A stretch of DNA of 64,000 nucleotides. It comes from Deferribacterales bacterium (lineage in GTDB: Bacteria > Chrysiogenota > Deferribacteres > Deferribacterales > Geovibrionaceae). Below the pieces are notes generated by a model. That model saw only the letters and a program-made list of their open reading frames with translations. It made no database searches and was not told where the DNA came from. The translations under genes were made by a program, and so were the position numbers. This document shows positions 47,369 through 62,254 of this stretch, one piece after another; the first letter of the stretch is position 1; the number at the start of each line of letters is the position of its first letter. The stretch spans positions 160,001 to 224,000 of the forward strand of contig JBFWJS010000001.1 in NCBI GenBank assembly GCA_050253075.1. Direction: 5' to 3'.

Positions 47369-47397
47369 AAAAAAAGGCCACCCGAAGGTGGCCTTTT
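47369..47397. terminator. bidirectional intrinsic terminator
   Basis: AAAAAAAGGCCACC-CGAA-GGTGGCCTTTT between convergent genes. Confidence 0.9.
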
Positions 47398-47420
47398 CCA
47401 TATCTAAAGAGCGTTAACTC

Positions 47421-47879
47421 TTAGTTCTCAAGGTTTACAATATCATCGTAGAGATACTGTATGTCCTTCTTATGACATGCGACATCGTAAGCGAGTCTTT
47501 GAAAAGCCTCACCTGCTTCGCCTTCAAACTTTTCAGCCATCTGCTCGTAGAACTTCATAGAGTTATCTTCGTGTCTGATAGCGATAAGCAGAAGCTCCTG
47601 CACGTTCAGGTCAGGTTTTACAACCTCAGAACGACCTGTTTTACCGATGCCAAGGTCTCTCAGCTTACATGTAGAATCAAGCCCCAGTTTATCCAGGCAT
47701 CCACACATAATAGAGTCTTCTATGTCCTTCTTGAATCTCTGCTTTGTATCCATAAGCTCCTGAATGATCTTCTTGGAGCTCAGTTCTGATACAAGTGAGA
47801 GAAGTTTCTCATAGAAGTCATAAGTGAGCTGTTCTTTCTGTGCGGCTTCTTTCAAAGCCTCAACAACTGTTGCTTCCAT
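47421..47879 (-). CDS. ferritin-like (rubrerythrin-fold) protein with degenerate metal ligands
   Basis: Two A...E.....FY repeats; GGAG RBS; 9 nt downstream of nuoN. Confidence 0.75.
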   Translation of the reverse strand: MEATVVEALKEAAQKEQLTYDFYEKLLSLVSELSSKKIIQELMDTKQRFKKDIEDSIMCGCLDKLGLDSTCKLRDLGIGKTGRSEVVKPDLNVQELLLIAIRHEDNSMKFYEQMAEKFEGEAGEAFQRLAYDVACHKKDIQYLYDDIVNLEN

Positions 47880-47888
47880 TTAACTCTC

Positions 47889-49328
47889 CTACACAAGCAG
47901 TGTCTTCACAAGGTTTACGAAGAACGATGGGAAGAAACCGATCGCAAGCACCATCACTGCTCCGATGAAGGAAGTGATGAATGCAGAGCGTGTTACAGTA
48001 GCGTCAACATCGTACTCAGCCTCTTTGAAGTACATAAATATTGTGACACGCATGTAGTAGTAACAAGCGAGTGCACTGTTAAGACCGCCGATGATAGCGA
48101 GCCAGTAAAGCTCAGCTTTCATAGCAGACATAAGGATCTGGAATTTACCGATGAATCCTGCAAGTGGTGGAATGCCGGCAAGAGAGAACATGAATATAAG
48201 CATTCCAAGAGCATACATTGGGTTCTTTTTAGCAAGACCAGCAAAGCTCTCGATTCTCTCGTCGTCGATCATACCTTTGTTCTTTATAAGACCGAGCAGT
48301 GTGAAAGCTCCTATGTTCATGAAGGCATAGATAAGTGCGTAAAGCGCAACAGACTGGTAGCCTTCTGGGTTCATAGAAACAAGACCGATCAGCATGAAAC
48401 CTGCGTGTGCAATGGCAGAGTAACCGAGCATTCTCTTAACGTTGTTCTGTGCGAGAGCAACGAGGTTACCGTATGTCATTGTGATAACAGCAAGGATGCT
48501 GAAGAACAGTCCCCACATTCCGCTAACCGGCTCAAGCGCGATCCATGCGAATCTTATAAGCGCACCCATAGCAGCAGCCTTAGGAGCAACTGTCATGAAG
48601 CCTGTAGCAGGTGTCGGTGCACCCTGATAAACATCAGGTGCCCACATGTGGAACGGTACTGCGGAGATCTTGAACGCGAAACCGGCAAGCATCATAACAA
48701 GACCGATCTTAAATGTGGAGAGGCCGGCAGCCTCGCCTTTAAGAGCAGCAGCTATCTCAAGGTAGTTGAGTGAGCCGGTTGAACCGTATACATAAGTAAG
48801 ACCGTACAGGAAAAGACCGGAAGAAAAAGCACCTATGATGAAGTACTTGATACCCGCTTCTGTAGATCTTACGCATTTTTTGTTAAATCCTGCAAGGATG
48901 TACATGGAGATAGCCATTGTTTCCATACCAGCGTAGAACACTGTCAGGTCGAATGCAGAAACCATGAACATCATGCCGATGATGCTGAAGAACATGATGG
49001 AGTAGAATTCGCCCTTAAGGATTCCCTTGTCTTTCAGGTAGCTAACAGAACCGAGCGATGTCAGTGTGTATGCCACGCCGAAGATCAGGAAGAACACAAA
49101 AGAGTATGAGTCCCACATAACCATGTTGTTAAAGCCGAGGAATTTCTTTCCAACCGGCGGCCAGGATATAAGAACTGTTATAGCTATGAATACGATACCG
49201 AAGTAACCTACCATAGATTTCTTCTCGCCCTTTGTCATTACGTCGAGTACGACAAGTACGAGACCGAAAACAGTCATGAACACTTCTGGGTAAATCGAAA
49301 GAAGGTTTAATAATGCTTGTTGTGTCAT
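47889..49328 (-). CDS. nuoN: NADH-quinone oxidoreductase subunit N
   Basis: EAGIKYF, FKISAVPFHMWAPDVYQGAP, KRMLGYS, SLAGIPP. Confidence 0.96.
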   Translation of the reverse strand: MTQQALLNLLSIYPEVFMTVFGLVLVVLDVMTKGEKKSMVGYFGIVFIAITVLISWPPVGKKFLGFNNMVMWDSYSFVFFLIFGVAYTLTSLGSVSYLKDKGILKGEFYSIMFFSIIGMMFMVSAFDLTVFYAGMETMAISMYILAGFNKKCVRSTEAGIKYFIIGAFSSGLFLYGLTYVYGSTGSLNYLEIAAALKGEAAGLSTFKIGLVMMLAGFAFKISAVPFHMWAPDVYQGAPTPATGFMTVAPKAAAMGALIRFAWIALEPVSGMWGLFFSILAVITMTYGNLVALAQNNVKRMLGYSAIAHAGFMLIGLVSMNPEGYQSVALYALIYAFMNIGAFTLLGLIKNKGMIDDERIESFAGLAKKNPMYALGMLIFMFSLAGIPPLAGFIGKFQILMSAMKAELYWLAIIGGLNSALACYYYMRVTIFMYFKEAEYDVDATVTRSAFITSFIGAVMVLAIGFFPSFFVNLVKTLLV

Positions 49329-49344
49329 ATCTCTGAACCTCCCC

Positions 49345-50844
49345 TTACTTCATCGCCACGGCGGCTGTCGCCATGTGGTCAACGAGGTGTTTTACACTTG
49401 CGTGCATATACTCAGTAAAGGTCTCAGGATACAGACCAATCCAGAACACTATGATCAGCAGAGGGAAGATATAAATAACTTCTCTCAGGTTCATATCTTT
49501 CAGGTTTTCCCATCTAGTGTTGAGCTGCTGATAAAGCACTCTCTGGTAAACCCAGAGCATGTAAACAGCGGAGAAGATAACACCGATCGCCGCAAGTATC
49601 GCCCAGTCGCTGAACGCCTGGAAAGCACCTACGAGAACGAGGAATTCACCGATGAATGCACCCATAGAAGGAAGACCGATAGAACCCATTGTAAAGATCA
49701 GGAAGATAGTAGCGAATACAGGTACGCTTTTAGCGATACCGCCGTAGTCGGATATCTCTCTGGTGTGTGTTCTTTCGTATATCAGACCTATCAGAAGGAA
49801 GAGTGCACCTGTGATGATACCGTGGTTAAACATCTGCAGGATACCGCCTTCAATACCGGCCTGATTAAGAGCATATATACCGAGTGTTACAAAACCCATG
49901 TGTGAAACAGATGAGTAAGCAACAAGTTTCTTAATGTCTTTCTGAACCATCGCAACAAGAGCACCGTAGATGATCGCTATGACAGACATCACTGCGACGA
50001 ACGGCATCAGCTTGATAGATGCGATAGGTGTCATTGGCAGACAGAATCTCAGCATACCGTAAGTACCCATCTTAAGAAGTACACCGGCAAGGATAACAGA
50101 TCCTGCTGTAGGCGCCTCAACGTGAGCGTCAGGAAGCCATGTGTGTACAGGGAACATAGGAACTTTAATGGCAAAGCCGAGGAAGAATGCACCGAAGATC
50201 AGCATCTGGAATCCAGGTGCGTAGCTTGCGTGCATAGCTGTTATCGACAGTATGTCGAATGTGTAGACTCCTGTAAGGGAACCGTGCTTGAAGTAGAGCG
50301 CGATGATCGCGATCATCATAAGTACGGAACCTGCAAATGTATACAGGAAGAACTTAACAGCAGCGTATACTCTTCTCTTACCGCCCCATACACCGATGAT
50401 GAGGTACATTGGGATAAGCATTGCTTCCCAAAGGATGTAGAAGAGGAAGAAGTCAAGAGCAAGGAACACACCGACCATACCTGTCTCAAGGATAAGCATA
50501 GAGATGTAGAACTCTTTCTGTCTCTTCTGGATGTAAGTAAAAGAGCCGAGTATAGCTATAGCTGTAAGCAGTGTTGTGAGGAAGATCATAAGGATAGATA
50601 TTCCGTCAACACCGACAGCATATTTAACCCCGATAGCAGGTATCCAGTCGAAACTTTCAACGAACTGCATAGCAGGGTTTGACTTATCAAAGTTAGTCAT
50701 AAGCGGAATAGTAAAGATGAACTCTACTATTGACGCTACAAAGGCAGCCCACATGGTAGCCTTTCCACTCTTAAAGAATATAAGGATGAAAAGTGCCGCC
50801 GCGAGCGGGAAGAAAATGAGAATGCTAAGAATGTTTTCCATCAT
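49345..50844 (-). CDS. nuoM: NADH-quinone oxidoreductase subunit M
   Basis: GVDGIS, WEAMLIPM, KVPMFPVHTWLPDAHVEAP, LAGVLLKMG. Confidence 0.97.
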   Translation of the reverse strand: MMENILSILIFFPLAAALFILIFFKSGKATMWAAFVASIVEFIFTIPLMTNFDKSNPAMQFVESFDWIPAIGVKYAVGVDGISILMIFLTTLLTAIAILGSFTYIQKRQKEFYISMLILETGMVGVFLALDFFLFYILWEAMLIPMYLIIGVWGGKRRVYAAVKFFLYTFAGSVLMMIAIIALYFKHGSLTGVYTFDILSITAMHASYAPGFQMLIFGAFFLGFAIKVPMFPVHTWLPDAHVEAPTAGSVILAGVLLKMGTYGMLRFCLPMTPIASIKLMPFVAVMSVIAIIYGALVAMVQKDIKKLVAYSSVSHMGFVTLGIYALNQAGIEGGILQMFNHGIITGALFLLIGLIYERTHTREISDYGGIAKSVPVFATIFLIFTMGSIGLPSMGAFIGEFLVLVGAFQAFSDWAILAAIGVIFSAVYMLWVYQRVLYQQLNTRWENLKDMNLREVIYIFPLLIIVFWIGLYPETFTEYMHASVKHLVDHMATAAVAMK

Positions 50845-50857
50845 CTTTCCATCCCCC

Positions 50858-52774
50858 TTACACTGTGTAGAATATTGTGATCAGAACTATCACACCGACA
50901 GCCATTGTAAAAATGTATGTCTGTAAACGTCCTGTCTGTACGTGTCTTACAACTCCGGATAACCACATTGGAACACGTCCGAAGGCGTTTACAATGAAGT
51001 CGATGAAGTTAGCATCGAAACCTCTCCAAAGCATGTTGGAGATTGTTACGATAGGGTGTACGAATAAGAAGTCATAAAGCTCATCGAAGTACCATTTGTT
51101 AAGAAGGAACTTGTGGATAGGCTTAAATGTCTTAACTGTTTTCTCAGGCAGTGCCGGGAACATCTTAACATAAAACAGGTAAGATACGAATATACCGGCA
51201 GCAGCAACCGCGATGGAGAGCAGCATCAGCATTGTAGCTGTAGAGTGCTCCATGTGGTGCGGATGTGCGTGAGCAGGTGTAAGCACTGGTCCGAGGAAGT
51301 GGTGGATGTATCCGTTTTCAAGCGGATATCCGAATACCATACCCACGAGAACTGAAAGTATAGCAAGGAACACAAGTGGTCCGGCCATAGTCCATGGAGA
51401 TTCGTGAGCGTGATCGTGCAGATGCTGATCTCTCGGTGTTCCCTGGAACACGAGGAAGTAGGATCTGAACATATAGAATGCAGTCATACCTGCAACAGCT
51501 GTACCAACGAACCATGCGATGTTATGTCCGCCTGCGAATGTCATGGCAAGGATCTCATCCTTAGACCAGAAACCGGCAAGTGGCGGAATACCGGCGATTG
51601 CGATACAACCTATAAGGTATGTCCAATGTGTAACAGGCATTTTCTTCTTAAGTCCACCCATTATTCTTACGTCCAGCTGGTCATGCATAGCGTGCATAAC
51701 AGAACCGGAGCAAAGGAAGAGAAGACCTTTGAACATAGCGTGTGTGAAAAGGTGGAAGATAGCTGCAACATATGCACCCACACCAGTAGCCATGATCATG
51801 TAACCAAGCTGTGATACTGTGGAGTAAGCAAGGATTCTCTTAAGGTCGTACTGTGTAAGACCGATAGAAGCACCGAGGAATGCTGTCATAGCACCCGCGA
51901 ACACAACGAACTGAGAAGTCATGTGCGCTTCAGAGAAAAGAGCGTTACATCTAGCAACCATGTAAACACCGGCTGTAACCATTGTTGCCGCGTGGATAAG
52001 AGCGGAAACCGGTGTAGGACCTTCCATCGCATCCGGCAGCCATGTGTGCAGAGGGAACTGAGCAGATTTACCCATCGCTCCGCAGAAGAGACCGAATGTC
52101 ATAAGGTCGATAAGAGGGAGCTTCATGCCGAAGACAACAAAGCCTGCCTCTTTAATATGATGAATAGCTTCTGTGTTGAAAGCATCGGAGTACTGTACGC
52201 TTCTGAAAGTCACGATCACAAGAAGGAGACCGACATAGAAACCAAAGTCACCGATACGGTTCATAACGAAAGCTTTCTTACATGCATCAGCTGCGCTCTT
52301 TTTGTGGAACCAGAAACCGATAAGCAGGTATGAAGACAGACCCACAAGTTCCCAGCCGACAAAGAGCATAAGGAAGTTGTTACCAAGAACAAGTACAAGC
52401 ATGGAAAGTGTGAACACTGAAAGATATGTGAAGAATCTCCAGAATCCAGCATCACCGTGCATATAACCGATGGAGTATATATGAACCATCAGAGAGATTG
52501 TCGTAACAACTATAAGCATGATGGATGACAGCGGATCGATCAGTATACCAAATGGTATGGTGAGTTTACCCGCTACAACCCAGGTGTATAGTGTACCGTC
52601 TACGCTGAAACCTTGAGAAACAAGGTAGAATAATATAAGCGCGCAGATCCAGGAAACACTGACACCAGCGATAGCCACGATTGGTGCGGCATTTTTGATG
52701 TATCTTCTACCGAGAAGACCGTTTATCAAAAACGCAACAAGTGGCCCGAGTAGTGTTAATACTGCAAAAATCAT
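50858..52774 (-). CDS. nuoL: NADH-quinone oxidoreductase subunit L
   Basis: GWELVG, NRIGD, GKSAQFPLHTWLPDAMEGPTPVSALIHAATMV. Confidence 0.97.
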   Translation of the reverse strand: MIFAVLTLLGPLVAFLINGLLGRRYIKNAAPIVAIAGVSVSWICALILFYLVSQGFSVDGTLYTWVVAGKLTIPFGILIDPLSSIMLIVVTTISLMVHIYSIGYMHGDAGFWRFFTYLSVFTLSMLVLVLGNNFLMLFVGWELVGLSSYLLIGFWFHKKSAADACKKAFVMNRIGDFGFYVGLLLVIVTFRSVQYSDAFNTEAIHHIKEAGFVVFGMKLPLIDLMTFGLFCGAMGKSAQFPLHTWLPDAMEGPTPVSALIHAATMVTAGVYMVARCNALFSEAHMTSQFVVFAGAMTAFLGASIGLTQYDLKRILAYSTVSQLGYMIMATGVGAYVAAIFHLFTHAMFKGLLFLCSGSVMHAMHDQLDVRIMGGLKKKMPVTHWTYLIGCIAIAGIPPLAGFWSKDEILAMTFAGGHNIAWFVGTAVAGMTAFYMFRSYFLVFQGTPRDQHLHDHAHESPWTMAGPLVFLAILSVLVGMVFGYPLENGYIHHFLGPVLTPAHAHPHHMEHSTATMLMLLSIAVAAAGIFVSYLFYVKMFPALPEKTVKTFKPIHKFLLNKWYFDELYDFLFVHPIVTISNMLWRGFDANFIDFIVNAFGRVPMWLSGVVRHVQTGRLQTYIFTMAVGVIVLITIFYTV

Positions 52775-52783
52775 AACCTACCT

Positions 52784-53086
52784 CTACCCTCTCATTGTAT
52801 TAATTTCATCAGCGTTGATGGTCTGCTTGTTTCTGAACATCGTGATGAACAGAGCAAGACCAACAGCGGCTTCAGCAGCAGCTACAGCCATGACGAACAC
52901 GATAAAAACCTGTCCGCTCATGGACTGAAGGTGGTTCGAAAAAGCTGCGAGGTTGATGTTAACGGCGTTAAGCATCAATTCCAGTGACATGAACATAACT
53001 ATGAGGTTTCTGCGAATCAGAACACCTGCCATGCCAATGGCAAAGATGATACCGCTCAGAACAAGATAATGTGCAAGCGTAAGCAT
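52784..53086 (-). CDS. nuoK: NADH-quinone oxidoreductase subunit K
   Basis: [22 protein letters not shown]. Confidence 0.97.
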
Positions 53087-53096
53087 CTTTTCCCCC

Positions 53097-53609
53097 TTAA
53101 TCCTTTTTCGCTATTACAATTGCGCCGATCATTGCTACGAGGAGCATGATAGAAACTATCTCGAAAGGCACAAGGTAAGTTGTGAAAAGTTCAATACCGA
53201 ACAGTTTTACGTTTCCGAAGTTGTGCGGATCCGCAATACCTGTAAGCTTTGCTGTTTTGATGACATCAGCACCCATGAGAGTCATTACAACCTGAAGGAA
53301 AAGAACAAGAGCTACGATTCCTCCGAGTATAACTTTAAACGGCATCTTAATGAAGCCGGTAGACTTTGGATTGAGCAGCATCACAACAAACATATACAGA
53401 ACCAGAATCGCTCCTGCATATACCATTACCTGAATAGCCGCAATGAACTCGGCGTCAAGCTGTACGAAGATACCAGCTACACAGAAAAATGTGAGCAGCA
53501 TCCACAGTGCTGAATGAACAGGGTTTTCTCTGGTTATAAGAAACAGAGCAGATACAACCGCAGTGATTCCCAGCACCCAGAATCCTATGTTTGCCAGAAT
53601 TGCGTTCAT
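53097..53609 (-). CDS. nuoJ: NADH-quinone oxidoreductase subunit J
   Basis: NPVHSAL, AEF...[15 protein letters not shown]...LLVAMIGA. Confidence 0.96.
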
Positions 53610-54112
53610 TGCTTAACTCCTTCAACAAGTTTCTTTTTGAGATGCTTATTCTTCCAGTTACCTTCAAGGTTGTCCTTGTAGTTCTGGGAAAGTGTCTTCA
53701 TGTTGATGACATAGTTGTCTCTTGTGGAGTCAACTATGTTCCACTCCCATCCCATGTGGATGGCGTCAACAGGGCAGACCTCTTCGCAGTATCCGCAATA
53801 GATACATCTGGAAAGGTCGAGCTCGTACTTTCTGATAAGTCTCTCGCCGTTTGGACCGCAGTCAGTTTCGATGTGGATACACTCTGAAGGGCAAACCTTC
53901 TGGCAGAGGTAACAACCCACACACTTTGTGCTGCCGTCAGCGTGTGTCTTTATATACTGAACACCTCTGAATCTATCCTGTATAGGAGTAGCTTCATAGG
54001 GGTATTTGTAAGTCACAGGTTTTGTAAACATGTGCTTCAGGGTAATGCTGAGACCCTTGAGGATTTCAGTAAAGAAAAGTGTTTCAAATACGTTCTTTCT
54101 CATTTTCATCAC
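53606..54112 (-). CDS. nuoI: NADH-quinone oxidoreductase subunit I
   Basis: YPYE..RFRG; CVGCYLCQKVCP and CIYCGYCEEVCP. Confidence 0.96.
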   Translation of the reverse strand: MMKMRKNVFETLFFTEILKGLSITLKHMFTKPVTYKYPYEATPIQDRFRGVQYIKTHADGSTKCVGCYLCQKVCPSECIHIETDCGPNGERLIRKYELDLSRCIYCGYCEEVCPVDAIHMGWEWNIVDSTRDNYVINMKTLSQNYKDNLEGNWKNKHLKKKLVEGVKQ

Positions 54113-54115
54113 CCC

Positions 54116-55102
54116 TTAATTCCTTACCGCGTATACAACAATACTTGTTACAAGCAGGTTGCAGAGTGCGATAGGAATAAGTATTTTCCATCCAAGGCTC
54201 ATAAGCTGATCGTATCTGAGTCGTGGGAGCGTAGCTCTCAGCCACAGATAGAAGAACATGAATGCAAGCATCTTAATGAGCATCCAAGCGAGCGGTGGAA
54301 GAAGAGGACCGTTGTAACCGCCGAGGAACATAACTGCACATATAGCAGAGATGACCCACATGTTTGCGTATTCGCCGAGGAAGAACATTGCAAACCTCAT
54401 AGATGAATACTCAGTGTGGAAACCGGAGACAATCTCTGTCTCTGCTTCCGCAAGGTCAAACGGAGCTCTGTTTGTCTCAGCAACGGCTGAGATAGTAAAT
54501 ATTACAAATGCAACAATCTGTGGAACGATGTACCACATACCGGCCTGTGCATCAACGATGCTCTTGAGGCTGAGTGAGCCAGCAAGAAGGACAGGACCGA
54601 TGAGTGAGAGTCCCAGAGCTGTTTCATAACTGATAACCTGAGCTGTAGAACGAAGAGAACCAAGTGTGGAATACTTCGAGTTAGAAGCCCAACCGGACAT
54701 AATGATACCGTAGACACCCACAGAAGAGAGTGCCAGCAGGTAAAGAAGTCCGACATTGATATCAGCTACATAAGGCTGAACCTGCATGCCGAAGAGAGTC
54801 ATCTCATCAGCAAAAGGTATAACCGCGAAGCCGGCAAGACCCGGAACCATGCCAAGAAAAGGTGCGACATAGAATACAGGTTTATCAACCATATCTGGTG
54901 TCATATCTTCTTTAGCAAAGAGTTTCAGACCGTCGGCTAAGGGCTGCAGAAGTCCTTTAGGACCTGTGTGCGATGGACCGAGACGTACCTGCATATGACC
55001 GATAACCTTTCTTTCAGCATAGGTCATATAGGCAACACCGGTAAGCGTGCACACAACTATAATCAGTATCTTGATTAGTGTGAAGACAATCGCGAGTACC
55101 AT
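54116..55102 (-). CDS. nuoH: NADH-quinone oxidoreductase subunit H
   Basis: ERKV..Q.R.GP, GLLQPLADGLK, AETNRAPFDL.EAE, PRLRYDQLM. Confidence 0.97.
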   Translation of the reverse strand: MVLAIVFTLIKILIIVVCTLTGVAYMTYAERKVIGHMQVRLGPSHTGPKGLLQPLADGLKLFAKEDMTPDMVDKPVFYVAPFLGMVPGLAGFAVIPFADEMTLFGMQVQPYVADINVGLLYLLALSSVGVYGIIMSGWASNSKYSTLGSLRSTAQVISYETALGLSLIGPVLLAGSLSLKSIVDAQAGMWYIVPQIVAFVIFTISAVAETNRAPFDLAEAETEIVSGFHTEYSSMRFAMFFLGEYANMWVISAICAVMFLGGYNGPLLPPLAWMLIKMLAFMFFYLWLRATLPRLRYDQLMSLGWKILIPIALCNLLVTSIVVYAVRN

Positions 55103-55129: not shown

Positions 55130-57376
55130 TTACTTACTTATTTCCGCTTTCAGATATCTTCCGAGTGAGAAGATATCGGCTGTCGAAACAAAATCCTCAG
55201 GGAGTGTTACACAACCCTTTGTCATTTGCTTATCTATCTCAACAACAAACTCACCGGAGAAGCCGTCGCCTTTAACTTTGGCTGTGTCGCCGTTGTTAAG
55301 TCCGAGAGCTTTCGCATCGTCCACGCCGAGTGTGAGCTTCGGAGAGCCATACACCTTAGCGAGGTCAGGTGACCATCTTGTATAAGAACCTGAATGCAGC
55401 CTGAGGCTAGCGGGATAAAGGTAGAACTTGCCGTTGCCTTTGGCTGTGGCTGCGACCTTCTCAGCATCAGCTTTGAAAACTGATGGATAGGCTACAGTAC
55501 CGCCGTCCCACTCGACACCGGAGTAAAGTTTCACCTCTTTTTCAATGAGACCTCTTACAGCATAAGCGTCTGTAGGAAGCTCTGCACCGAGAGCCTTAGC
55601 GAGCTTAGCAATAACTTCAGCATCTGAAGGTACGCCTTTGTCAACAGCCTTGCTTACGAGCTGAACTCTTCCCTCAAGGTTAGTGAAGGAACCGCTCTTC
55701 TCGGCAAATGTAGCAACAGGAACGTAAACGCTCGCTGCTTTAGCTGTTTCGCTCATGAAAGGATCGGTAACCATAAGCAGATCAAGTTTCGCAAATGCGC
55801 CTGCGAGCTTGCTCCAGCCTGTTCTGGTGAGGATGTTTTCTCCGAGGCAGATCACATTTTTGATCTTTCCGGATTCAACACCTGCAGCGAATTCAGCAGG
55901 AGATTTAGCTGCGCATCCCATATCTACGATACCAACAGAGTTGTTCTTAGACTTAGCAGGGACCAGCTTGATCTTATCACAAGCCTTTTTGATGGCCTGT
56001 GCAATATAAGTGTCTGCTTCGTTGTACGGATCGAAGACAACAACAGGTCTCTCAGCGTTTACAAGCGCCTTAGCCTCTGCTGCGTATTCATTCTCCGCAC
56101 CGCCGACAGCAGCACAGAATTTCTCCATCTCGCCGTGAAGCTCTTCAGGGTTGCCTGTTACAAATTTTGTAGCGACTCTTCTGAGAGCAGTGAAGCTAGG
56201 GTAGAAAACTGTGAGAGGAGCCTCACCTTTTCTAGCCGCAACTCTTACTGCGAGACCAAGAATTGGATTGGATTCTGTAACGTTGATGTTAAGAACTGCG
56301 ACTGCATCGGAGCCCTCTACATCTGCGTATGTTGCCTCAGGGTTGATAGCGTCTGTCTCTGTGGAGTAGATGCTGCCTGTGCCGATAACGCCTGCGAGCT
56401 TAGTAGCGAGGAATGCTTCCTCGTTTGTAAGTCTAGGTGAAACAACAACAGCAACACTATCCTTAGCAGCTGCTTTAAGTTTTTCGGCAGCGTACTCGAC
56501 AGCTTCGTCTATAGAAACTTTTTTAGCTTCGCCGCTTACTTTAACCTGAGCCTCAGTTTCACGCTTTACGCTGTTCATAAAGTCGAAACCGAAACGTCCC
56601 TTAGCACACATGTATCCGTGGTTAACGCCTTCTTCAGGCATTTCATTCATACGGAATACTTCGTTTCCTTCGTAGTCTATGCTGACAGTACATCCGCAAG
56701 AGCAGAGACCGCAGACAGTCTTTTCACTTTCGAGGTTCCATGGTCTGTTTTTGAACAGGTACACTCTGTTGTTAAGTGAGCCGACCGGACATACGCTGAT
56801 ACACTGACCGCAGTATTCACAGTTCCAAGGCTGCTCGAATGAAGTACCGATGATAGTATCTGTACCTCTGTTAAGGAATGAAATAGCCTCAACGTTTACA
56901 ACCTCGTCACATATACGTACGCAGCGTCCGCAAAGTACACATCTGTCGATGTCCCTCTCGATGAAAGGGTTTGTGTGGTCAACAGGTGTATCGTTAGGAA
57001 CAGCGTCGAAACGAACTTTTGTAACACCGACTTCATAAGTAAGGTCTTGCAGAGTACACTCGCCGCCTTTGTCACAAACAGGACAGTCAAGCGGGTGGTT
57101 GATAAGAAGCAGCTCGATAGCTGTCTTACGTACTCTGGAGAGCTTCTCAGATTCGGTAACGATTTCCATTTTATCGGTTACAGGTGTTGTACAAGCGGCC
57201 TGAAGCTTTGGCATACCGACCTGCTCAACAAGACAAACCCTGCAAGCACCGAAAGGATTAAGCCTGGAGTCGTGACAAAGCACTGGAATGTGAACCCCGG
57301 CCTCTTTTGCGGCATCGAGTATCGTAGTTCCCGCTGGAACCTCAACCTCTTTTCCGTTTATTTTTACAGTAAGCAT
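55130..57376 (-). CDS. nuoG: NADH-quinone oxidoreductase subunit G, Fe-S-rich variant
   Basis: GACRVC [2Fe-2S]; HPLDCPVCDKGGEC; CVLCGRCVRIC + CEYCGQCISVCP; CGLCSCGC..CAKG. Confidence 0.92.
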   Translation of the reverse strand: MLTVKINGKEVEVPAGTTILDAAKEAGVHIPVLCHDSRLNPFGACRVCLVEQVGMPKLQAACTTPVTDKMEIVTESEKLSRVRKTAIELLLINHPLDCPVCDKGGECTLQDLTYEVGVTKVRFDAVPNDTPVDHTNPFIERDIDRCVLCGRCVRICDEVVNVEAISFLNRGTDTIIGTSFEQPWNCEYCGQCISVCPVGSLNNRVYLFKNRPWNLESEKTVCGLCSCGCTVSIDYEGNEVFRMNEMPEEGVNHGYMCAKGRFGFDFMNSVKRETEAQVKVSGEAKKVSIDEAVEYAAEKLKAAAKDSVAVVVSPRLTNEEAFLATKLAGVIGTGSIYSTETDAINPEATYADVEGSDAVAVLNINVTESNPILGLAVRVAARKGEAPLTVFYPSFTALRRVATKFVTGNPEELHGEMEKFCAAVGGAENEYAAEAKALVNAERPVVVFDPYNEADTYIAQAIKKACDKIKLVPAKSKNNSVGIVDMGCAAKSPAEFAAGVESGKIKNVICLGENILTRTGWSKLAGAFAKLDLLMVTDPFMSETAKAASVYVPVATFAEKSGSFTNLEGRVQLVSKAVDKGVPSDAEVIAKLAKALGAELPTDAYAVRGLIEKEVKLYSGVEWDGGTVAYPSVFKADAEKVAATAKGNGKFYLYPASLRLHSGSYTRWSPDLAKVYGSPKLTLGVDDAKALGLNNGDTAKVKGDGFSGEFVVEIDKQMTKGCVTLPEDFVSTADIFSLGRYLKAEISK

Positions 57377-57395
57377 ACTGAAATTCTCCTCGGTC

Positions 57396-59192
57396 CTAAT
57401 CTATCGCGTTAAATGGACAGTTCACGATACACTCGCGACACTTAACGCATTTTTCATTGTCGATAACTGCATAAGTACCTTTCTCCCATGTGATAGCATC
57501 AACAGGGCAAGCCTTTTTACAGAGACCGCATTTTTTACATCTCTCGTCGACAACAACAAACTCGATGAGCTCTGCACATTCCCTTGCAGGACACTTCTTA
57601 TCAAAAATATGAGCTTCATATTCATGTCTGAAGTATTTGATTGTCGTAAGTACCGGGTTCGGAGCTGTTTGTCCGAGACCGCAGAGAGAAGCTGTCTTAA
57701 TATCCTCACCGAGCTGAAGGAGCAGATCGATATCTTCTGCGCGTCCTTTACCGGTTGTGATTCTGTCCAGGATATCAAGCATTGTCTTAGTTCCGATTCG
57801 ACATGGTATACATTTACCACAGGACTCTCTCTGTGTGAATGTAAGGAAGAACTGTGCAACGTTAACCATGCAGTTAGTCTCATCCATTACAACCACACCG
57901 CCGGATCCCATCATAGCTCCAGCCTGGATAAGTGAGTCGTAGTCGATTGGTGTTTCAAGGTGGTCAGGTGTAAGACATCCGCCGGATGGTCCGCCGAGCT
58001 GAACAGCCTTGAACTTTCTCTTTTTAGGGATACCGCCGCCAACGTCAAAGATGAGCTCGCGTACAGTAATACCCATAGGAACTTCCACAAGACCGGAAGA
58101 TTTAATCTTTCCTGAAAGAGCAAAGATCTTTGTACCTTTTGATTTTTCAGTACCGATGTTTGCATACCACTCAGATCCCTTAAGTACGATGTTAGGGAGG
58201 TTAGCAAAAGTCTCAACGTTGTTAACGTTGGATGGTTTCTGCCAGAGTCCTCTAACAGCAGGGAAAGGAGGTCTTGGTCTTGGCATTCCTCTTTCGCCTT
58301 CGATAGATGCAATAAGAGCTGTCTCTTCACCACAAACGAAAGCACCGGCACCGGCCTTCAGCTTAAGTTTGAAGTTGTATTCTGTACCGAATACGTGCTT
58401 GCCGAGATACCCGGCAGCTTCTGCATCTGCGATAGCTTTTATAACTCTTTCAATTGCCAGCGGATATTCCGCACGGCAGTAGATGTAGCCTTCATCACAG
58501 CCGATTGCATAACCTGCAATAAGCATACCTTCGATAACGGCGTGCGGGTTACCCTCGATGATGGAACGGTCCATGAACGCTCCCGGGTCACCCTCATCCG
58601 CATTACAGATAAGGTATTTGTGATCTTCAGTTTTGCTTCCTCTACAGAATGTCCATTTAAGACCTGTAGGGAAACCACCGCCCCCACGACCGCGGAGACC
58701 GGACTTTTTAACTTCTTCGATGACATCCTCAGGCTTCATTGTGAGAGCTTTTTTGATGGCTTCGTAGCCGCCGTGCTTCACATAGTCCTCAAGGCTTTCC
58801 GGGTCTACGCGACCGCAGTCATGAAGAACATAACGCTTTTGTTTATCGTAGAACTGGAAGTAGTCAGCTTTGGCAGCCCACTTTTCAACAACATTGCCGC
58901 CGACGATGTGCTCTTCTACAATAGTAGGAACCATCTCAGCAGTAACGTGCTCGTAAGTGATGCCTTTTTCAGCGCCAGGAATGTAGACGTCTATAAGAAC
59001 GTCACGGGCACAAAGACCCCTGCATCCTGTCTGCTTAGCTTCACAGTTTCTTTCTTTAGATTCAGCGTTTTTGAGACCATGCTTCTCGAACTCAGCGTCG
59101 AGAGCCTCCATGACCTCTTTCGCGCCTGATGCCACCCCAGCGGTACCCATACAGACGTGAACTTCAACGTGATCTGTTTTATAATCGTTCAT
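57396..59192 (-). CDS. nuoF: NADH-quinone oxidoreductase subunit F, long HydB/BfuB-type
   Basis: SGLRGRGGGGFPTG, NADEGDPGAFMDR, CGEETAL, ESCGKCIPCR; extra N-terminal thioredoxin-like and C-terminal 2[4Fe-4S] domains. Confidence 0.92.
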   Translation of the reverse strand: MNDYKTDHVEVHVCMGTAGVASGAKEVMEALDAEFEKHGLKNAESKERNCEAKQTGCRGLCARDVLIDVYIPGAEKGITYEHVTAEMVPTIVEEHIVGGNVVEKWAAKADYFQFYDKQKRYVLHDCGRVDPESLEDYVKHGGYEAIKKALTMKPEDVIEEVKKSGLRGRGGGGFPTGLKWTFCRGSKTEDHKYLICNADEGDPGAFMDRSIIEGNPHAVIEGMLIAGYAIGCDEGYIYCRAEYPLAIERVIKAIADAEAAGYLGKHVFGTEYNFKLKLKAGAGAFVCGEETALIASIEGERGMPRPRPPFPAVRGLWQKPSNVNNVETFANLPNIVLKGSEWYANIGTEKSKGTKIFALSGKIKSSGLVEVPMGITVRELIFDVGGGIPKKRKFKAVQLGGPSGGCLTPDHLETPIDYDSLIQAGAMMGSGGVVVMDETNCMVNVAQFFLTFTQRESCGKCIPCRIGTKTMLDILDRITTGKGRAEDIDLLLQLGEDIKTASLCGLGQTAPNPVLTTIKYFRHEYEAHIFDKKCPARECAELIEFVVVDERCKKCGLCKKACPVDAITWEKGTYAVIDNEKCVKCRECIVNCPFNAID

Positions 59193-59201
59193 AACCTGCC
59201 C

Positions 59202-59714
59202 CTATGCTTCCGGAAGATTTGCCGCATAATCCTTAAAGATCTTTCTGGCATCTTCAGGCTTAAGGTTACCGTATGTTTTATTGTTAATCATGATAACGGG
59301 AGCCATACCGCATGCACCGATGCATGAAACCTCTTCAAGTGTGAAAAGGAGGTCAGCACTTGTTTCACCGTTAGCAATTTTAAACTCTTCGCCGACAATC
59401 TCTGAAATACGTCCGGAACCCTGAACGTGACAAGCAGTTCCTCTGCAAACCCTGATGATGTATTTACCACGAGGTTTTGTATAGAACTGTGCGTAGAAGG
59501 TGATCACACCGTAAATAGTGTGAGGAGACATATTCATATTGTCAGCAATTCTTTCAACCAGCTCCGGGAAGAGAAAACCGTAAGCGTCCTGAGTCTGCTG
59601 AAGAACAGGTATTGTTGCTCCAGGCCAGTCTTTGTACTTCTCACAGATCTCGTCGCACATAGCGGGATCGAATTCTTGAGTTTCTTCTTGTTCTACTACT
59701 TCATTCTCTGCCAT
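59202..59714 (-). CDS. nuoE: NADH-quinone oxidoreductase subunit E
   Basis: TFYAQF, CRGTACHV, CIGACGMAP. Confidence 0.94.
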   Translation of the reverse strand: MAENEVVEQEETQEFDPAMCDEICEKYKDWPGATIPVLQQTQDAYGFLFPELVERIADNMNMSPHTIYGVITFYAQFYTKPRGKYIIRVCRGTACHVQGSGRISEIVGEEFKIANGETSADLLFTLEEVSCIGACGMAPVIMINNKTYGNLKPEDARKIFKDYAANLPEA

Positions 59715-59726
59715 TTCTGCTTCCCC

Positions 59727-60914
59727 TTACCTGTCAATCTCACCGAGTACAACGTCGTTTGTACCGATGATAGCAACAAGGTCAGCCAGCATGTGGCCTT
59801 TAGCCATTTTGTTGAGAACGCCAAGGTTTACGAATGAGGGGGATCTGATCTTCATTCTGTAAGGTCTTTCTTCCCCTTCACTGATCAGGTAGAATCCAAG
59901 CTCACCTTTTGTAGCTTCGATACCCTGGTATGTCTCACCTTTAGGTGGACGGAAACCTTTGGAAACTATGTAGAATCTTCTGATAAGAGATTCCATGCGC
60001 TCGTAAACATCTTCGTGTGAAGGCATAGCGACACGAGGGTCTTCTGTCATCACGCCGCCTTCAGCAGGTATCTGCTCAAGAGCTTGTCTGATGATGCTGT
60101 TAGATACGCGCATCTCTTTCATTCTGACTTTATATCTAGCGTATGTATCGCCTTCCTGCTCAACAGGTACTTCCCATTCGAATCTATCATAGATTCCGTA
60201 TGGCTCGTCTCTTCTGAGGTCGAAGTCCACGCCGGAGCCTCTCATGATAGGTCCTGATGTACCGTAAGCCATAGCCTCTTCACCTGTGAGGTTACCGATG
60301 CCGATGGTACGTCCCATCCAGATTCTGTTTGTAGTAAGAAGGTTCTCATATGTATCAACACATGTTTCAAATCTGCTGACGAAGTCCGCAAGTTCTGTGT
60401 AGAAATCTTCCGGCATATCTTCTCTGACACCGCCGATTCTCATCCATGAAGATGTCATACGCTGACCTGTTCCCTTCTCGAAAAGATCGAGGAGTTCTTC
60501 ACGCTCACGGAAAGCATAAAGGAAAACAGTCATAGCACCAATATCGAGTGCGTGTGTAGCAATCCAAACTAAGTGGGAAACCAGTCTAGACATCTCTGCG
60601 AGGATAACACGGAGGTACTCCGCTCTCTCTGGGATTTTAACGTCAAAGAATCTTTCAACAGCGAGACAATATCCAAGGTTATTAGAAAGAGGTGATAAGT
60701 AGTCGAGTCTATCTGTCAGTGGAATAGTCTGGTGATAAGTTCTGTTCTCAGCCAGTTTTTCAGTTCCTCTGTGCAGAAAGCCTACGTCAGGGTCAACATT
60801 GACGATTGTTTCACCGTCAAGGTCTACAACAAGTCGCAAAACACCGTGTGTACTGGGGTGCTGAGGCCCCATGTTTACGGTTAATACTTCTGATACGTTT
60901 TCCATTCTACTCAT
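59727..60914 (-). CDS. nuoD: NADH-quinone oxidoreductase subunit D
   Basis: NMGPQHPSTHGVLR, GFLHRGTEK, RLDYL, GEIDR; no NiFe CxxC ligands; start at ATG 60914. Confidence 0.96.
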   Translation of the reverse strand: MSRMENVSEVLTVNMGPQHPSTHGVLRLVVDLDGETIVNVDPDVGFLHRGTEKLAENRTYHQTIPLTDRLDYLSPLSNNLGYCLAVERFFDVKIPERAEYLRVILAEMSRLVSHLVWIATHALDIGAMTVFLYAFREREELLDLFEKGTGQRMTSSWMRIGGVREDMPEDFYTELADFVSRFETCVDTYENLLTTNRIWMGRTIGIGNLTGEEAMAYGTSGPIMRGSGVDFDLRRDEPYGIYDRFEWEVPVEQEGDTYARYKVRMKEMRVSNSIIRQALEQIPAEGGVMTEDPRVAMPSHEDVYERMESLIRRFYIVSKGFRPPKGETYQGIEATKGELGFYLISEGEERPYRMKIRSPSFVNLGVLNKMAKGHMLADLVAIIGTNDVVLGEIDR

Positions 60915-60924
60915 ATTTCCGCCC

Positions 60925-61422
60925 CTACCTTGTAAACTTAAGTCCGAGACCCTGTTCGTCAGCATTGTTGAACCAGGTTCTCTCCTTAAGCGGAAAGTCT
61001 TTTCTGAGAGGGTGTCCTTCAAAGAACTCAGGCAGAAGTATTCTTCTGAGGTCCGGATGTCCTTCGAATATAACACCGACAAGGTCGTATTGTTCTCTTT
61101 CCATCAGGTTAGCACCTATCCAGGTGTCAGTGATGGTCGGGAACTTATTGTCTTCACTTGCAAGCTTCACAAAAACCCTGAGTTTGTTCTCAATAGAGAA
61201 GAGATTGTTTGTTACTTCAAACTTCTCACGTCTCTTAGGCCAGTGAGTCGCAACGACATCGACCATATATTTGAAGGAGTATTCGTCACGAAGAGCTGTA
61301 AGTACCTCTTTGTAATCAGCAACGTCCTTCACTTTGATAAAATTACACTTGAACTCTGTGTAGCAGTTAAGCTTTTCAGGGAACTGTGCAGACAGTTTTT
61401 CAGTAAGCTGTTCGAATGTCAT
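60925..61422 (-). CDS. nuoC: NADH-quinone oxidoreductase subunit C
   Basis: EREQYDLVG..F.GHPDLRRIL, GHPLRKDFP. Confidence 0.96.
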   Translation of the reverse strand: MTFEQLTEKLSAQFPEKLNCYTEFKCNFIKVKDVADYKEVLTALRDEYSFKYMVDVVATHWPKRREKFEVTNNLFSIENKLRVFVKLASEDNKFPTITDTWIGANLMEREQYDLVGVIFEGHPDLRRILLPEFFEGHPLRKDFPLKERTWFNNADEQGLGLKFTR

Positions 61423-61433
61423 AGTATTACTCC

Positions 61434-61910
61434 TTATTTCCTAAGAACTTTTTCAGTCATGATCTTAGACTGAAGAGCTACTATTGCATCTAACAGTGCT
61501 TCTGGTCTTGGAGGACATCCCGGAATATAAAAATCCACAGGAATTACTTCGTCCACACCCTGAACTGTAGAGTATGTGTTATAGATACCGCCTGATGTAG
61601 CACAGCTACCCATAGCGATAACCCACTTTGGCTCCGGCATTTGCAGGTAAACTTTGCGAACGATAGGAGCCATCTTTCTTGTAACCGTACCAGCGACGAT
61701 CATAACGTCGGCCTGTCTCGGTGTAGCACGGAATATGATACCCATTCTGTCGAGGTCATACTTCGCAGCACCGGTAGCCATCATTTCGATCGCGCAGCAG
61801 GCAAGACCAAAGGTCACCGGCCACAAGGATGATTTCCTACAATAGTTGATTACGTTATCAACTGTCGTAGTCAATACATTGTCTGGTAATTTACCGTCAA
61901 TTAAGCCCAT
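61434..61910 (-). CDS. nuoB: NADH-quinone oxidoreductase subunit B
   Basis: [27 protein letters not shown]; start at ATG 61910. Confidence 0.97.
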
Positions 61911-62254
61911 TCTAACGCTCCTTTCTGCCAAGCATAAAAATAGCCGAAGACAAGTATCACGAGAAATAGAATCATCTCGATAAGTCCAAAAAGGCCGATC
62001 ATGTCAAACGCGACGGCCCACGGAAACAGGAACACTGTCTCCACGTCAAAGATCACAAACAGCATAGCGATAATGTAGAATCTAACATTCATACGCTTTC
62101 TGTTCTCGTCGAGTGGCGGCATACCGCACTCATAAACACTAAACTTGATTTTTTCATATTTCTTCGGGCGAATAATAGCACCGGCAAACATTACTATTAT
62201 ACCGAGTGTAGACGCCACTAAAAGAAATAGCACTATAGGCAAATATCCACTCAT
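61901..62254 (-). CDS. nuoA: NADH-quinone oxidoreductase subunit A
   Basis: [27 protein letters not shown]. Confidence 0.97.

Follow-up and report, generated by a model that had tools for sequence, protein, structure and literature searches.

The 64,000-nt window analysed here, by which we mean the whole stretch of Deferribacterales DNA, carries a complete nuoA-N operon that is the sole complex I of its genome and whose NuoEFG head is of the Bfu/HydABC type. From its genes and motifs we propose that this 14-subunit complex would oxidise NADH and reduced ferredoxin together, in strict confurcation, reduce menaquinone and pump protons, a reading to which we give a probability of about 0.55. The idea is that of Schut et al (2022; PMC9304861), who predicted a Type 3 Bfu enzyme, Nuo-Bfu, for BfuB clade 38 in Deferribacteres and Proteobacteria, and the window is a further example of this published prediction. 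We add to it a genome with Nuo-Bfu as the only complex I, a corrected reaction direction and a signature of the clade at the B5 metal site. Statements on published systems draw on portions of Schut et al (2022), of the papers named below and of PMC12018979, PMC11829005, PMC10021017, PMC7311640, PMC10482914, PMC7894505, PMC4453560, PMC2669807 and PMC5585712.

A complete nuo operon with a Bfu-type head

The genes nuoE, nuoF and nuoG exactly fill positions 59714-55130 of the minus strand, within a complete operon (62254-47889) whose 14 products all match the expected Pfam families in a profile search. The intergenic gaps range from -31 to +27 nt, the over-long nuoD open reading frame (ORF) excepted. 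The host genome, Denitrovibrio-like, 3.04 Mb in size and 99.9% complete, holds one nuoD and one nuoF; the encoded NuoF shares 94% identity with its Denitrovibrio acetiphilus counterpart, and Deferribacterales supply the nearest named loci. A second PF01512 match in the genome was considered as an alternative NuoF head and rejected, as it is RnfC.

NuoF has every sequence hallmark of the B subunit of bifurcating Bfu/HydB enzymes. All the motifs listed for this 598-aa protein in the original prediction, an earlier note made on the same DNA, were located in the translation, with CMGTAG at 14, CRGLC at 57, ADEGDPGAFM at 198, GGPSGG at 400 and CPAREC from C534 to C539, and the C-terminal region contains two CxxCxxCxxxC motifs (552-562 and 582-592). 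PF01512, PF10589 and PF00037 exceed their cut-offs, and the SLBB domain PF10531 scores 24.6 bits (E 2e-5, cut-off 27) and is listed for the identical protein P0001; Pfam was used in place of InterPro for these Bfu domains. In a PDB sequence search the nine top matches, at 594-790 bits, are without exception Bfu B subunits, headed by HydB of A. mobile (7t2r_B; 790 bits, E = 1e-236, residues 10-597). Seven full-length B chains and 9mqx align over residues ~10-597, one chain being a shorter construct, whereas canonical NuoF chains align only with residues ~130-530 at ~370-405 bits, and within the PDB the N-terminal domain matches Bfu B subunits only. The AlphaFold model (predicted local distance difference test score 83, predicted template-modelling (TM) score 0.84, residues 283-319 poorly modelled) superposes on the top ten Bfu B chains with TM scores of 0.81-0.89, against 0.60-0.64 for canonical NuoF.

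At the positions of A205-F206-M207, F285 and GGPSG, E. coli NuoF has T98-Y99-K100, Y178 and GGAGT. F285 aligns also with F281 of T. sibiricus, and E290 with E183 of E. coli NuoF and E286 of T. sibiricus NfnB. The features of a bifurcating subunit given by Losey (2020) are all present, namely A205 and M207 (A/E232 and M234 in Losey's numbering), a Phe instead of Tyr near the flavin mononucleotide (FMN), GGPSG at 400-404 and the extra clusters; with a numbering offset of 27 to T. maritima, Losey's position 367 misses F285, so the Phe was defined as in T. sibiricus. Among the 120 best of 8,000 scored homologues, which come from two phyla, the hallmark residues are invariant save in one partial sequence: the B2 ligands (C441, H528, C534, C539) and E290 are kept in 120/120, and the eight Cys of the C-terminal ferredoxin domain in 119/120, the exception being the partial sequence. 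Canonical NuoF has ~420-450 aa, a T/S-Y/F-K motif, the Tyr and no extra clusters, and with its profile TIGR01959 the protein scores 514 bits, under the cut-off of 558.65; it passes the cut-off of NF010120, and databases label such proteins plain NuoF.

The minimal Bfu core as defined in 2025, that is the ligands for clusters B1, C1, B3 and B4 and the FMN pocket, is complete. So is the set of Schut et al (2022), which comprises the BfuB domains, a BfuC with C1 and a BfuA with [2Fe-2S] and [4Fe-4S] clusters in the same operon, and a B2 site of one His and three Cys, reported there as absent from non-bifurcating homologues. By analogy with solved relatives, the B2 linker site would bind Zn.

The two partner subunits complete the head. 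NuoE has the ligands of the [2Fe-2S] cluster C1/N1a (C90, C95, C131 and C135; 59310-59447), invariant in 22/22 aligned homologues. NuoG carries the A1-A5 set of a Type 3 BfuA, with N1b/A1 at 57191-57277, the His-ligated N5/A3 at 57056-57097, an 8-Cys A2/A4 pair at 56789-56941 (residues 146-196) and N7/A5 at 56606-56713 (N7-type motif, residues 222-257). The His-ligated A3 exit cluster that characterises Type 3 Nuo-Bfu is found at residues 94-107 (HPLDCPVCDKGGEC; PF10588). The 8-Cys pair and the N7-type motif are thus present, as originally described, but neither marks bifurcation; the pair also occurs in the non-bifurcating FdsA of R. capsulatus and in an SfrA-like protein of the same genome that has no Bfu partner. 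Neither E. coli NuoG nor the canonical operons of family f10 have the pair, and in Csac NfnA the corresponding side-branch clusters lie off the electron path.

The remainder of the complex is that of a quinone-reducing proton pump. The original description of a complete nuoA-N operon, with quinone-site motifs and no NiFe ligands in NuoD, holds throughout: NuoD has HPSTHG (H19, H23), DRLDY (Y72) and D124, and its only Cys are C83 and C185, which leaves no NiFe ligand pairs and none of the CxxC motifs of a group 4 hydrogenase or Mbh-Bfu. The tandem Cys of N2 are present, and in NuoA, H, J, K, L, M and N all 19 positions checked, which we take to be the charged pumping sites, are identical to E. 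coli.

The B5 site, distribution and ancestry

The N-terminal domain had been described as thioredoxin-like with CMGTAG and CRGLC motifs. Both motifs stand, but the B5 site they form has three, not four, of the Cys of a thioredoxin-type [2Fe-2S] cluster, G19 replacing the second, so that C14, C57 and C61 are accompanied by D64. A short RxC50 insertion specific to the clade (59043-59063) adds C50. We compared this site in 134 rows of 560-700 aa; they come from the 160 that remained once 30 near-duplicate loci were removed, with fused, partial and frameshifted rows excluded. Three patterns emerge: four Cys in most hydrogenase-linked rows, C18/C57/C61/E64 in the Nfn type, and C14/C57/C61/D64 + C50 in the window's clade, where it occupies 35/35 rows; D64 is found in 0/99 and C50 in 1/99 of the other rows. 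This signature occurs nowhere in the portions of the main text of Schut et al (2022), or under the supplement terms, that were searched.

The Nfn pattern, three Cys and one Glu, binds Zn in C. saccharolyticus NfnABC, and Zn also occupies B5 in T. sibiricus NfnABC, from which we infer that B5 of the window's NuoF probably holds one Zn rather than a [2Fe-2S] cluster. Since structures from 2025 place Zn at B5 in active Bfu members, with the core redefined as B1-FMN-C1, the missing four-Cys B5 does not disqualify this NuoF from the family. By the gene-cluster and the 2025 core definitions its sequence makes the complex a Nuo-Bfu member, at variance only with the four-Cys B5 wording of 2022. Two roles considered for C50 were set aside. 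NuoE C20/C24 as its partners are not conserved outside Deferribacterales, and as a fourth B5 ligand C50 starts strand 2 while C14 ends strand 1 in the model, so that it is probably too far.

Within the phylum, 33 of 68 genomes, the window's included, have a full-length orthologue of this NuoF (73-100% identity), and one further genome has a Bfu-type nuoF split over two contigs. Each genome with a Bfu-type nuoF has one nuoD match, and the gene lies among nuo genes in 26/26 loci inspected, some of which share genomes. With these queries, nuoF and nuoD matches were both absent from families f6 and f7 (28 genomes). The nuo operon of f9 has 11 subunits and is without E, F and G, and f10 has a canonical NuoF of 425-455 aa. 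In two 1.3-Mb relatives (L221 and L222, from G004 and G005) the nuo operon has 11 subunits, E, F and G being absent, and no Rnf match exceeds the cut-off. Desulfuromonadia-type metagenome loci present the same operon as the window, with a NuoF of 591-594 aa and a NuoG of 821-854 aa.

The C-terminal ferredoxin domain is not decaying. Its mean identity among 27 Deferribacterales sequences is 0.85, against 0.87 for the FMN core, and its ratio of non-synonymous to synonymous substitution rates is 0.063, against 0.047; of 351 pairs, 30 and 29 respectively had unsaturated synonymous sites and entered these ratios. Such retention is silent on what the domain does. A degenerate ferredoxin domain in Desulfuromonadia, hinted at by absent Pfam labels, proved false, as all eight Cys are present.

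Core-domain trees were built from 159, 61 and 36 rows, with the solved Bfu subunits absent from all three and context labels taken from neighbouring genes. All three unite Deferribacterales and Desulfuromonadia-type rows in the window's clade, which in the 36-row mixture tree (support 98/97) joins NfnABC-type B subunits (96/89) apart from canonical NuoF. The NuoF phylogeny, which the original prediction had proposed as a check and which bears on recruitment of the head from a soluble Bfu enzyme as against ancestry of canonical NuoF, favours Nfn relatives under the mixture model, but under LG+G4 a union of the clade and canonical NuoF is not rejected by the approximately unbiased (AU) test (p = 0.33). 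A proposal of two independent origins of Nuo-linked Bfu heads was withdrawn, since its AU p = 0.002 split a 100%-supported pair; with L020 included, a single origin of the window's clade and a second Nuo-linked lineage is not rejected (p = 0.256).

This second lineage, seen in L120, L121, L122, L124 and L125, has the order nuoE-nuoF-nuoG-nuoHIJKLM, with an extra thioredoxin-like gene (125 aa) between nuoE and nuoF and a four-Cys B5 in NuoF; upstream in L120, kinase-like and PHP-like ORFs (by eye), like the flanks of hydrogenase operons, stand instead of nuoABCD. Other variants were met among the homologues. A clade member in a nuo operon (L126:9944-11758) has Ser at the E290 position (CGES) and is a candidate NADPH-using variant, and L039, L040, L041 and L043 encode NuoF-like proteins of 1030-1044 aa (two are from Nitrospirota), whose long C-terminal extension resembles GltD on visual inspection.

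Table 1. Features of the nuo operon and its downstream end in the window
Feature	Position	Strand	Basis
nuoA, nuoB, nuoC	60925..62254	-	Pfam/TIGR profiles; nuoB N2 ligands C45, C46, C110, C139
nuoD, quinone-site subunit	59727..60914	-	TIGR01962 562.7 bits, cut-off 459
nuoE, BfuC/HydC-like, 170 aa	59202..59714	-	PF01257, E 4e-50
nuoF, BfuB/HydB-like FMN/NADH subunit, 598 aa, extra N- and C-terminal domains	57396..59192	-	best nine PDB sequence matches all Bfu B subunits; model TM
NuoF N-terminal thioredoxin-like domain, B5 site C14/C57/C61/D64	58893..59171	-	PF01257, weak
NuoF FMN/NADH domain: A205-F206-M207, F285, E290 (NADH-type)	58194..58712	-	PF01512
NuoF GGPSG(G) 400-405 in SLBB domain	57978..57995	-	bifurcating-type criterion
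NuoF N3/B1 [4Fe-4S] helix bundle (C458, C461, C464, C504) and B2 linker site (C441, H528, C534, C539)	57576..57872	-	PF10589
NuoF C-terminal 2[4Fe-4S] ferredoxin-like domain (B3, B4), predicted ferredoxin entry	57402..57557	-	PF00037, twice
nuoG, BfuA-like, 748 aa	55130..57376	-	Pfam profiles and cluster motifs
nuoH, I, J, K, L, M, N, membrane arm, charged proton-pumping residues intact	47889..55102	-	comparison with E. coli
Ferritin/rubrerythrin-like ORF, 152 aa, last gene of the operon	47421..47879	-	9 nt past nuoN; PF02915 weak, below cut-off
13-bp intrinsic terminator-like hairpin at operon end	47370..47399	-	terminator scan

Two gene starts differ from those of the ORF finder. The nuoD start at 61082 overlaps nuoC by 158 nt, and the gene most likely begins at one of the in-frame ATGs at 60914 or 60905; the nuoB start at 61931 overlaps the upstream gene, and an in-frame ATG at ~61910 is likelier. 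The ferritin/rubrerythrin-like ORF holds the same closing position in 12 related loci, and its first ExxH-type motif, intact in Deferribacter (EEVNH), is degenerate in the window (DTKQR); it may be a non-catalytic accessory or assembly factor. The terminator scan returned 16 sites against 12.4 expected overall, the hairpin at the operon end being the only long one, and the promoter scan 21 sites against 25.5 expected.

Electron donors, energetics and alternative readings

The genome encodes POR, KorDABG and two further 2-oxoacid oxidoreductases. Its tricarboxylic acid (TCA) cycle genes icd-mdh-sucCD-korDABG lie in one run (G000:C4:33500-41970, minus strand), the isocitrate dehydrogenase being of the NADP-dependent monomeric type, and a profile search of the genome found no E1 2-oxoacid dehydrogenase, the single weak match looking like a transketolase. 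Judged from these genes, one TCA turn would give one NADH and one ferredoxin electron pair, the products also stated for Geobacteraceae. Menaquinone genes (MqnA/D), nifHDK and NiFe hydrogenases are present, together with a conserved acidic 55-aa 2[4Fe-4S] ferredoxin (G000:C4:101612-101779). The fit of this metabolism to an input of NADH and ferredoxin is suggestive. Among the hydrogenases, two similar large/small pairs (G000:C2:448157-452143, plus strand, and C2:643562-647881, minus strand) are each followed by a chemotaxis-receptor-like ORF, possibly for H2 sensing.

In Bfu enzymes NAD(H) and ferredoxin stand on the same side of the reaction and the third substrate on the other, and in solved relatives removal of the C-terminal ferredoxin domain or of B4 abolishes most bifurcation. 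By homology with these enzymes, from which we argue ferredoxin binding, NuoE gating, coupling and stoichiometry, NADH would reduce FMN in NuoF and reduced ferredoxin, for which the 55-aa protein is the candidate, would load B3/B4; the mobile [2Fe-2S] domain of NuoE would carry the ferredoxin electrons to FMN/B1 only with NADH bound. Four electrons would then run through N1b-N4-N5-NuoI-N2 to menaquinone, with four protons pumped per electron pair. Published potentials put the limit for 4 H+/2e at 103-123 mV when NADH is the sole donor to menaquinone, and at 148-158 mV when ferredoxin joins it. The mean of the two donors, ~0.3 V, would thus be enough for 4 H+/2e at ~150 mV, where NADH alone would be insufficient. 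The required 1:1 ratio would come from the TCA cluster, with Mdh as the source of NADH and Kor as that of reduced ferredoxin.

A related enzyme may operate in G. sulfurreducens. Transposon sequencing (Tn-seq) on acetate/fumarate found GSU0338-0351 (Nuo-1) needed and the canonical nuo cluster not: nuoF-1 (1,776 nt, 591 codons) had 1 read and is essential, nuoF-2 (1,272 nt, 423 codons) had 19,484 reads and is non-essential. In the same data the 171-nt ferredoxin GSU2708 had 0 reads, and the small ferredoxin and Kor are essential; Nuo-1 and KorA-D are at their highest on acetate in Geobacter. With its 591-codon nuoF and 826-codon nuoG, Nuo-1 matches the Desulfuromonadia-type operons, and nuoF-1 would belong to the window's clade, judging from gene lengths and the citation by Schut et al (2022) rather than from an alignment. 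Geobacter has a second, canonical complex I, unlike the window's genome. An EtfAB cluster at G000:C1:94401-98492 (plus strand), in which EtfA carries a 2[4Fe-4S] domain and a membrane Fe-S subunit is also encoded, resembles a cluster reported as essential in Geobacter.

Several observations weigh against strict confurcation. Electron transfer to menaquinone is downhill from either donor, so thermodynamics does not compel coupling. B5 has three Cys here, and T. kivui HydABC without its B5 cluster loses bifurcation about tenfold; two NfnABC enzymes are active with Zn at B5, but the ligand set here differs from that of either. Ferredoxin has other exits, namely a complete rnfCDGEAB operon (L083, G000:C2:82533-87362, minus strand), with Rnf over the cut-off in 29/33 genomes that have a full-length Bfu-type nuoF, and the EtfAB-type gene pair. 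The net charge of the window's ferredoxin domain, -1, lies near the bottom of the range in its clade, whose mean is +2.2. A basic patch was considered as a proof that ferredoxin binds and rejected, since net charge resembles that of other Bfu B subunits and is uninformative. The metabolic fit is also non-exclusive: 66/68 genomes lack E1, among them those of f10, which have a canonical head, and the two f8 genomes combine E1 with the Bfu head; with exceptions both ways, lack of E1 was dropped as a predictor of that head. The Geobacter link rests on gene length and the citation by Schut et al (2022), and nuoF-1 essentiality may reflect low Nuo-2 expression. In BamGHI, the Bfu module of class II benzoyl-CoA reductase (bioRxiv 10.64898/2026.04.10.717634), NADH alone reduced 68% of the clusters. 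Finally, as the original prediction had stated, Nuo-linked Bfu modules are predicted, by Schut et al (2022), and our literature search, which mostly did not cover subscription journals, found no biochemical or structural study of Nuo-Bfu and, among the matches listed, none of a Denitrovibrio complex I; among the full texts searched the term itself occurs only in Schut et al (2022).

One alternative is an uncoupled complex I with two donors, in which ferredoxin would enter through B3/B4 and NuoE, NADH through FMN, and either alone would drive menaquinone reduction. Both reactions are exergonic, the conserved ferredoxin domain is equally accounted for, B5 is remodelled in the whole clade (in T. 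kivui HydABC the proposed gate is the redox state of B5), and the BamGHI donors are roughly additive (20% of clusters reduced with ferredoxin, 84% with both donors). Yet ferredoxin alone is largely blocked in BamGHI, and coupling is tight in the characterised Bfu enzymes that share this core, among them the NfnABC enzymes with Zn at B5 and Wor-Bfu, which stays coupled although both half reactions are downhill; we consider the uncoupled enzyme possible but unlikely. An ordinary NADH:menaquinone oxidoreductase, its extra domains being structural, regulatory or an electron buffer while Rnf handles ferredoxin, would suit the Rnf genes of this genome and most relatives, the plain NuoF name and the NF010120 score, and off-path clusters can persist for assembly, as in StnC. 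It is a rather improbable explanation, as canonical NuoF and the non-bifurcating FdsB lack the C-terminal domain, canonical NuoF lacks the AFM, F285 and GGPSG that are invariant in the 120 homologues, and NADH to menaquinone is marginal for 4 H+.

Two further schemes change the donors themselves. NADH could be a mid-potential donor split to ferredoxin and menaquinone, as in EtfABCX/FixABCX; the nitrogenase genes and POR need reduced ferredoxin, and the reaction is near thermoneutral. At -280/-500/-74 mV, however, it yields -28 mV summed over four electrons, which leaves no pumping force though the pumping residues are intact, and no Bfu enzyme described in the literature examined works in this way, so that we regard it as very doubtful. 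The test originally suggested, quinone-dependent ferredoxin reduction by NADH, is this EtfABCX reaction and runs opposite to the Bfu direction; a negative outcome would not refute a Bfu enzyme. A head using NADPH, with or without ferredoxin, would reoxidise the product of the NADP-type isocitrate dehydrogenase, and it draws on T. kivui HydABC, whose Bfu core can use NADP, and on the Ser at 290 in L126. Against this, E290, kept in the window and its 120 closest homologues, corresponds to the residue reported in T. sibiricus NfnB to select NADH over NADPH, and a separate SfrAB-like NADPH oxidoreductase is encoded in the genome; NADPH use is thus highly unlikely. Of the coupling of NAD(P)H, ferredoxin and menaquinone first proposed for this locus, the Bfu/HydB-type head, the quinone-reducing pump and the menaquinone genes are borne out, and NADPH is not supported.

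The SfrAB-like pair (L106, G000:C4:228755-233009, minus strand) joins a 749-aa NuoG paralogue (29%) to a 661-aa GltD-like subunit that contains an N3-like domain; it is found across the order, and the name Sfr comes from the Geobacter literature. It was considered as an NADPH head needing this membrane arm and rejected, as SfrA matches occur in 17/21 f7 genomes without a nuoD match.

If strict confurcation holds, this would be a complex I in which electron confurcation powers the proton pump. It would explain 4 H+/2e in acetate oxidisers that use menaquinone (Deferribacterales, Desulfuromonas, Geobacter), and the fate of TCA-cycle ferredoxin, which the Geobacter Tn-seq paper calls poorly understood. 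More tentatively, and as a whole on balance doubtful, the clade-38 enzyme might be a strictly coupled, reversible confurcating pump near equilibrium at ~150 mV, with C14/C57/C61/D64 + C50 as a third type of N-terminal metal site. On acetate it would pass electrons from NADH and ferredoxin to menaquinone; on H2 or formate it would run in reverse, the proton gradient driving electrons from menaquinol onto NAD+ and ferredoxin in one enzyme, and the reduced products would serve pyruvate synthesis and nitrogen fixation. It would then be the main energy-conserving step of Geobacter-type respirers.

Comparison with known systems

Canonical complex I (E. coli, T. thermophilus) shares with the window the 14 subunits, the quinone site, N2 and the pumping residues, but its 445-aa NuoF has TYK, Y178 and GGAGT and no extra domains, and its NuoG is without the second cluster of the pair. 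BamGHI, likewise a Bfu module, is proposed to be the input of a larger machine, confurcating electrons of NADH and reduced ferredoxin; it differs in its N-terminal [2Fe-2S] cluster and in feeding an HdrA module, and its fully coupled reaction was not obtained in vitro. HydABC (A. mobile 7t2r, A. woodii 7q4v, T. kivui 8a6t, T. maritima 7p5h) has the B and C architecture of the window, with a four-Cys B5 [2Fe-2S] cluster, H2 as third substrate and no membrane arm.

NfnABC/StnABC (C. saccharolyticus 9bp5, T. sibiricus 9n5u, S. ovata 8oh5) is the nearest group in the tree, at 55-57% identity and TM scores of 0.86-0.87, and has in common with the window's NuoF a B5 of three Cys plus an acid, a Cys3His B2 and the NADH-type Glu. 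The Cys kept from the first B5 motif is the second in NfnABC (C18 position, with E64) and the first in the window (C14, with D64), and these enzymes, unlike the window's complex, are soluble, with NADP(H) as third substrate at a flavin adenine dinucleotide domain in A. Nuo-Bfu of clade 38 is the system to which we assign the window, the clade number following from taxon content rather than from alignment to the sequences of Schut et al (2022). Their six Fe-S clusters assumed in BfuBC include B5 as [2Fe-2S], where the window has three Cys and an Asp, next to a Cys3His B2. The two agree in the 14 nuo genes with BfuABC in the middle, in the A1-A5 set of BfuA, in lineage, where Deferribacterales and Desulfuromonadia-type members form one clade, and in the predicted reaction and the predicted use of menaquinone.

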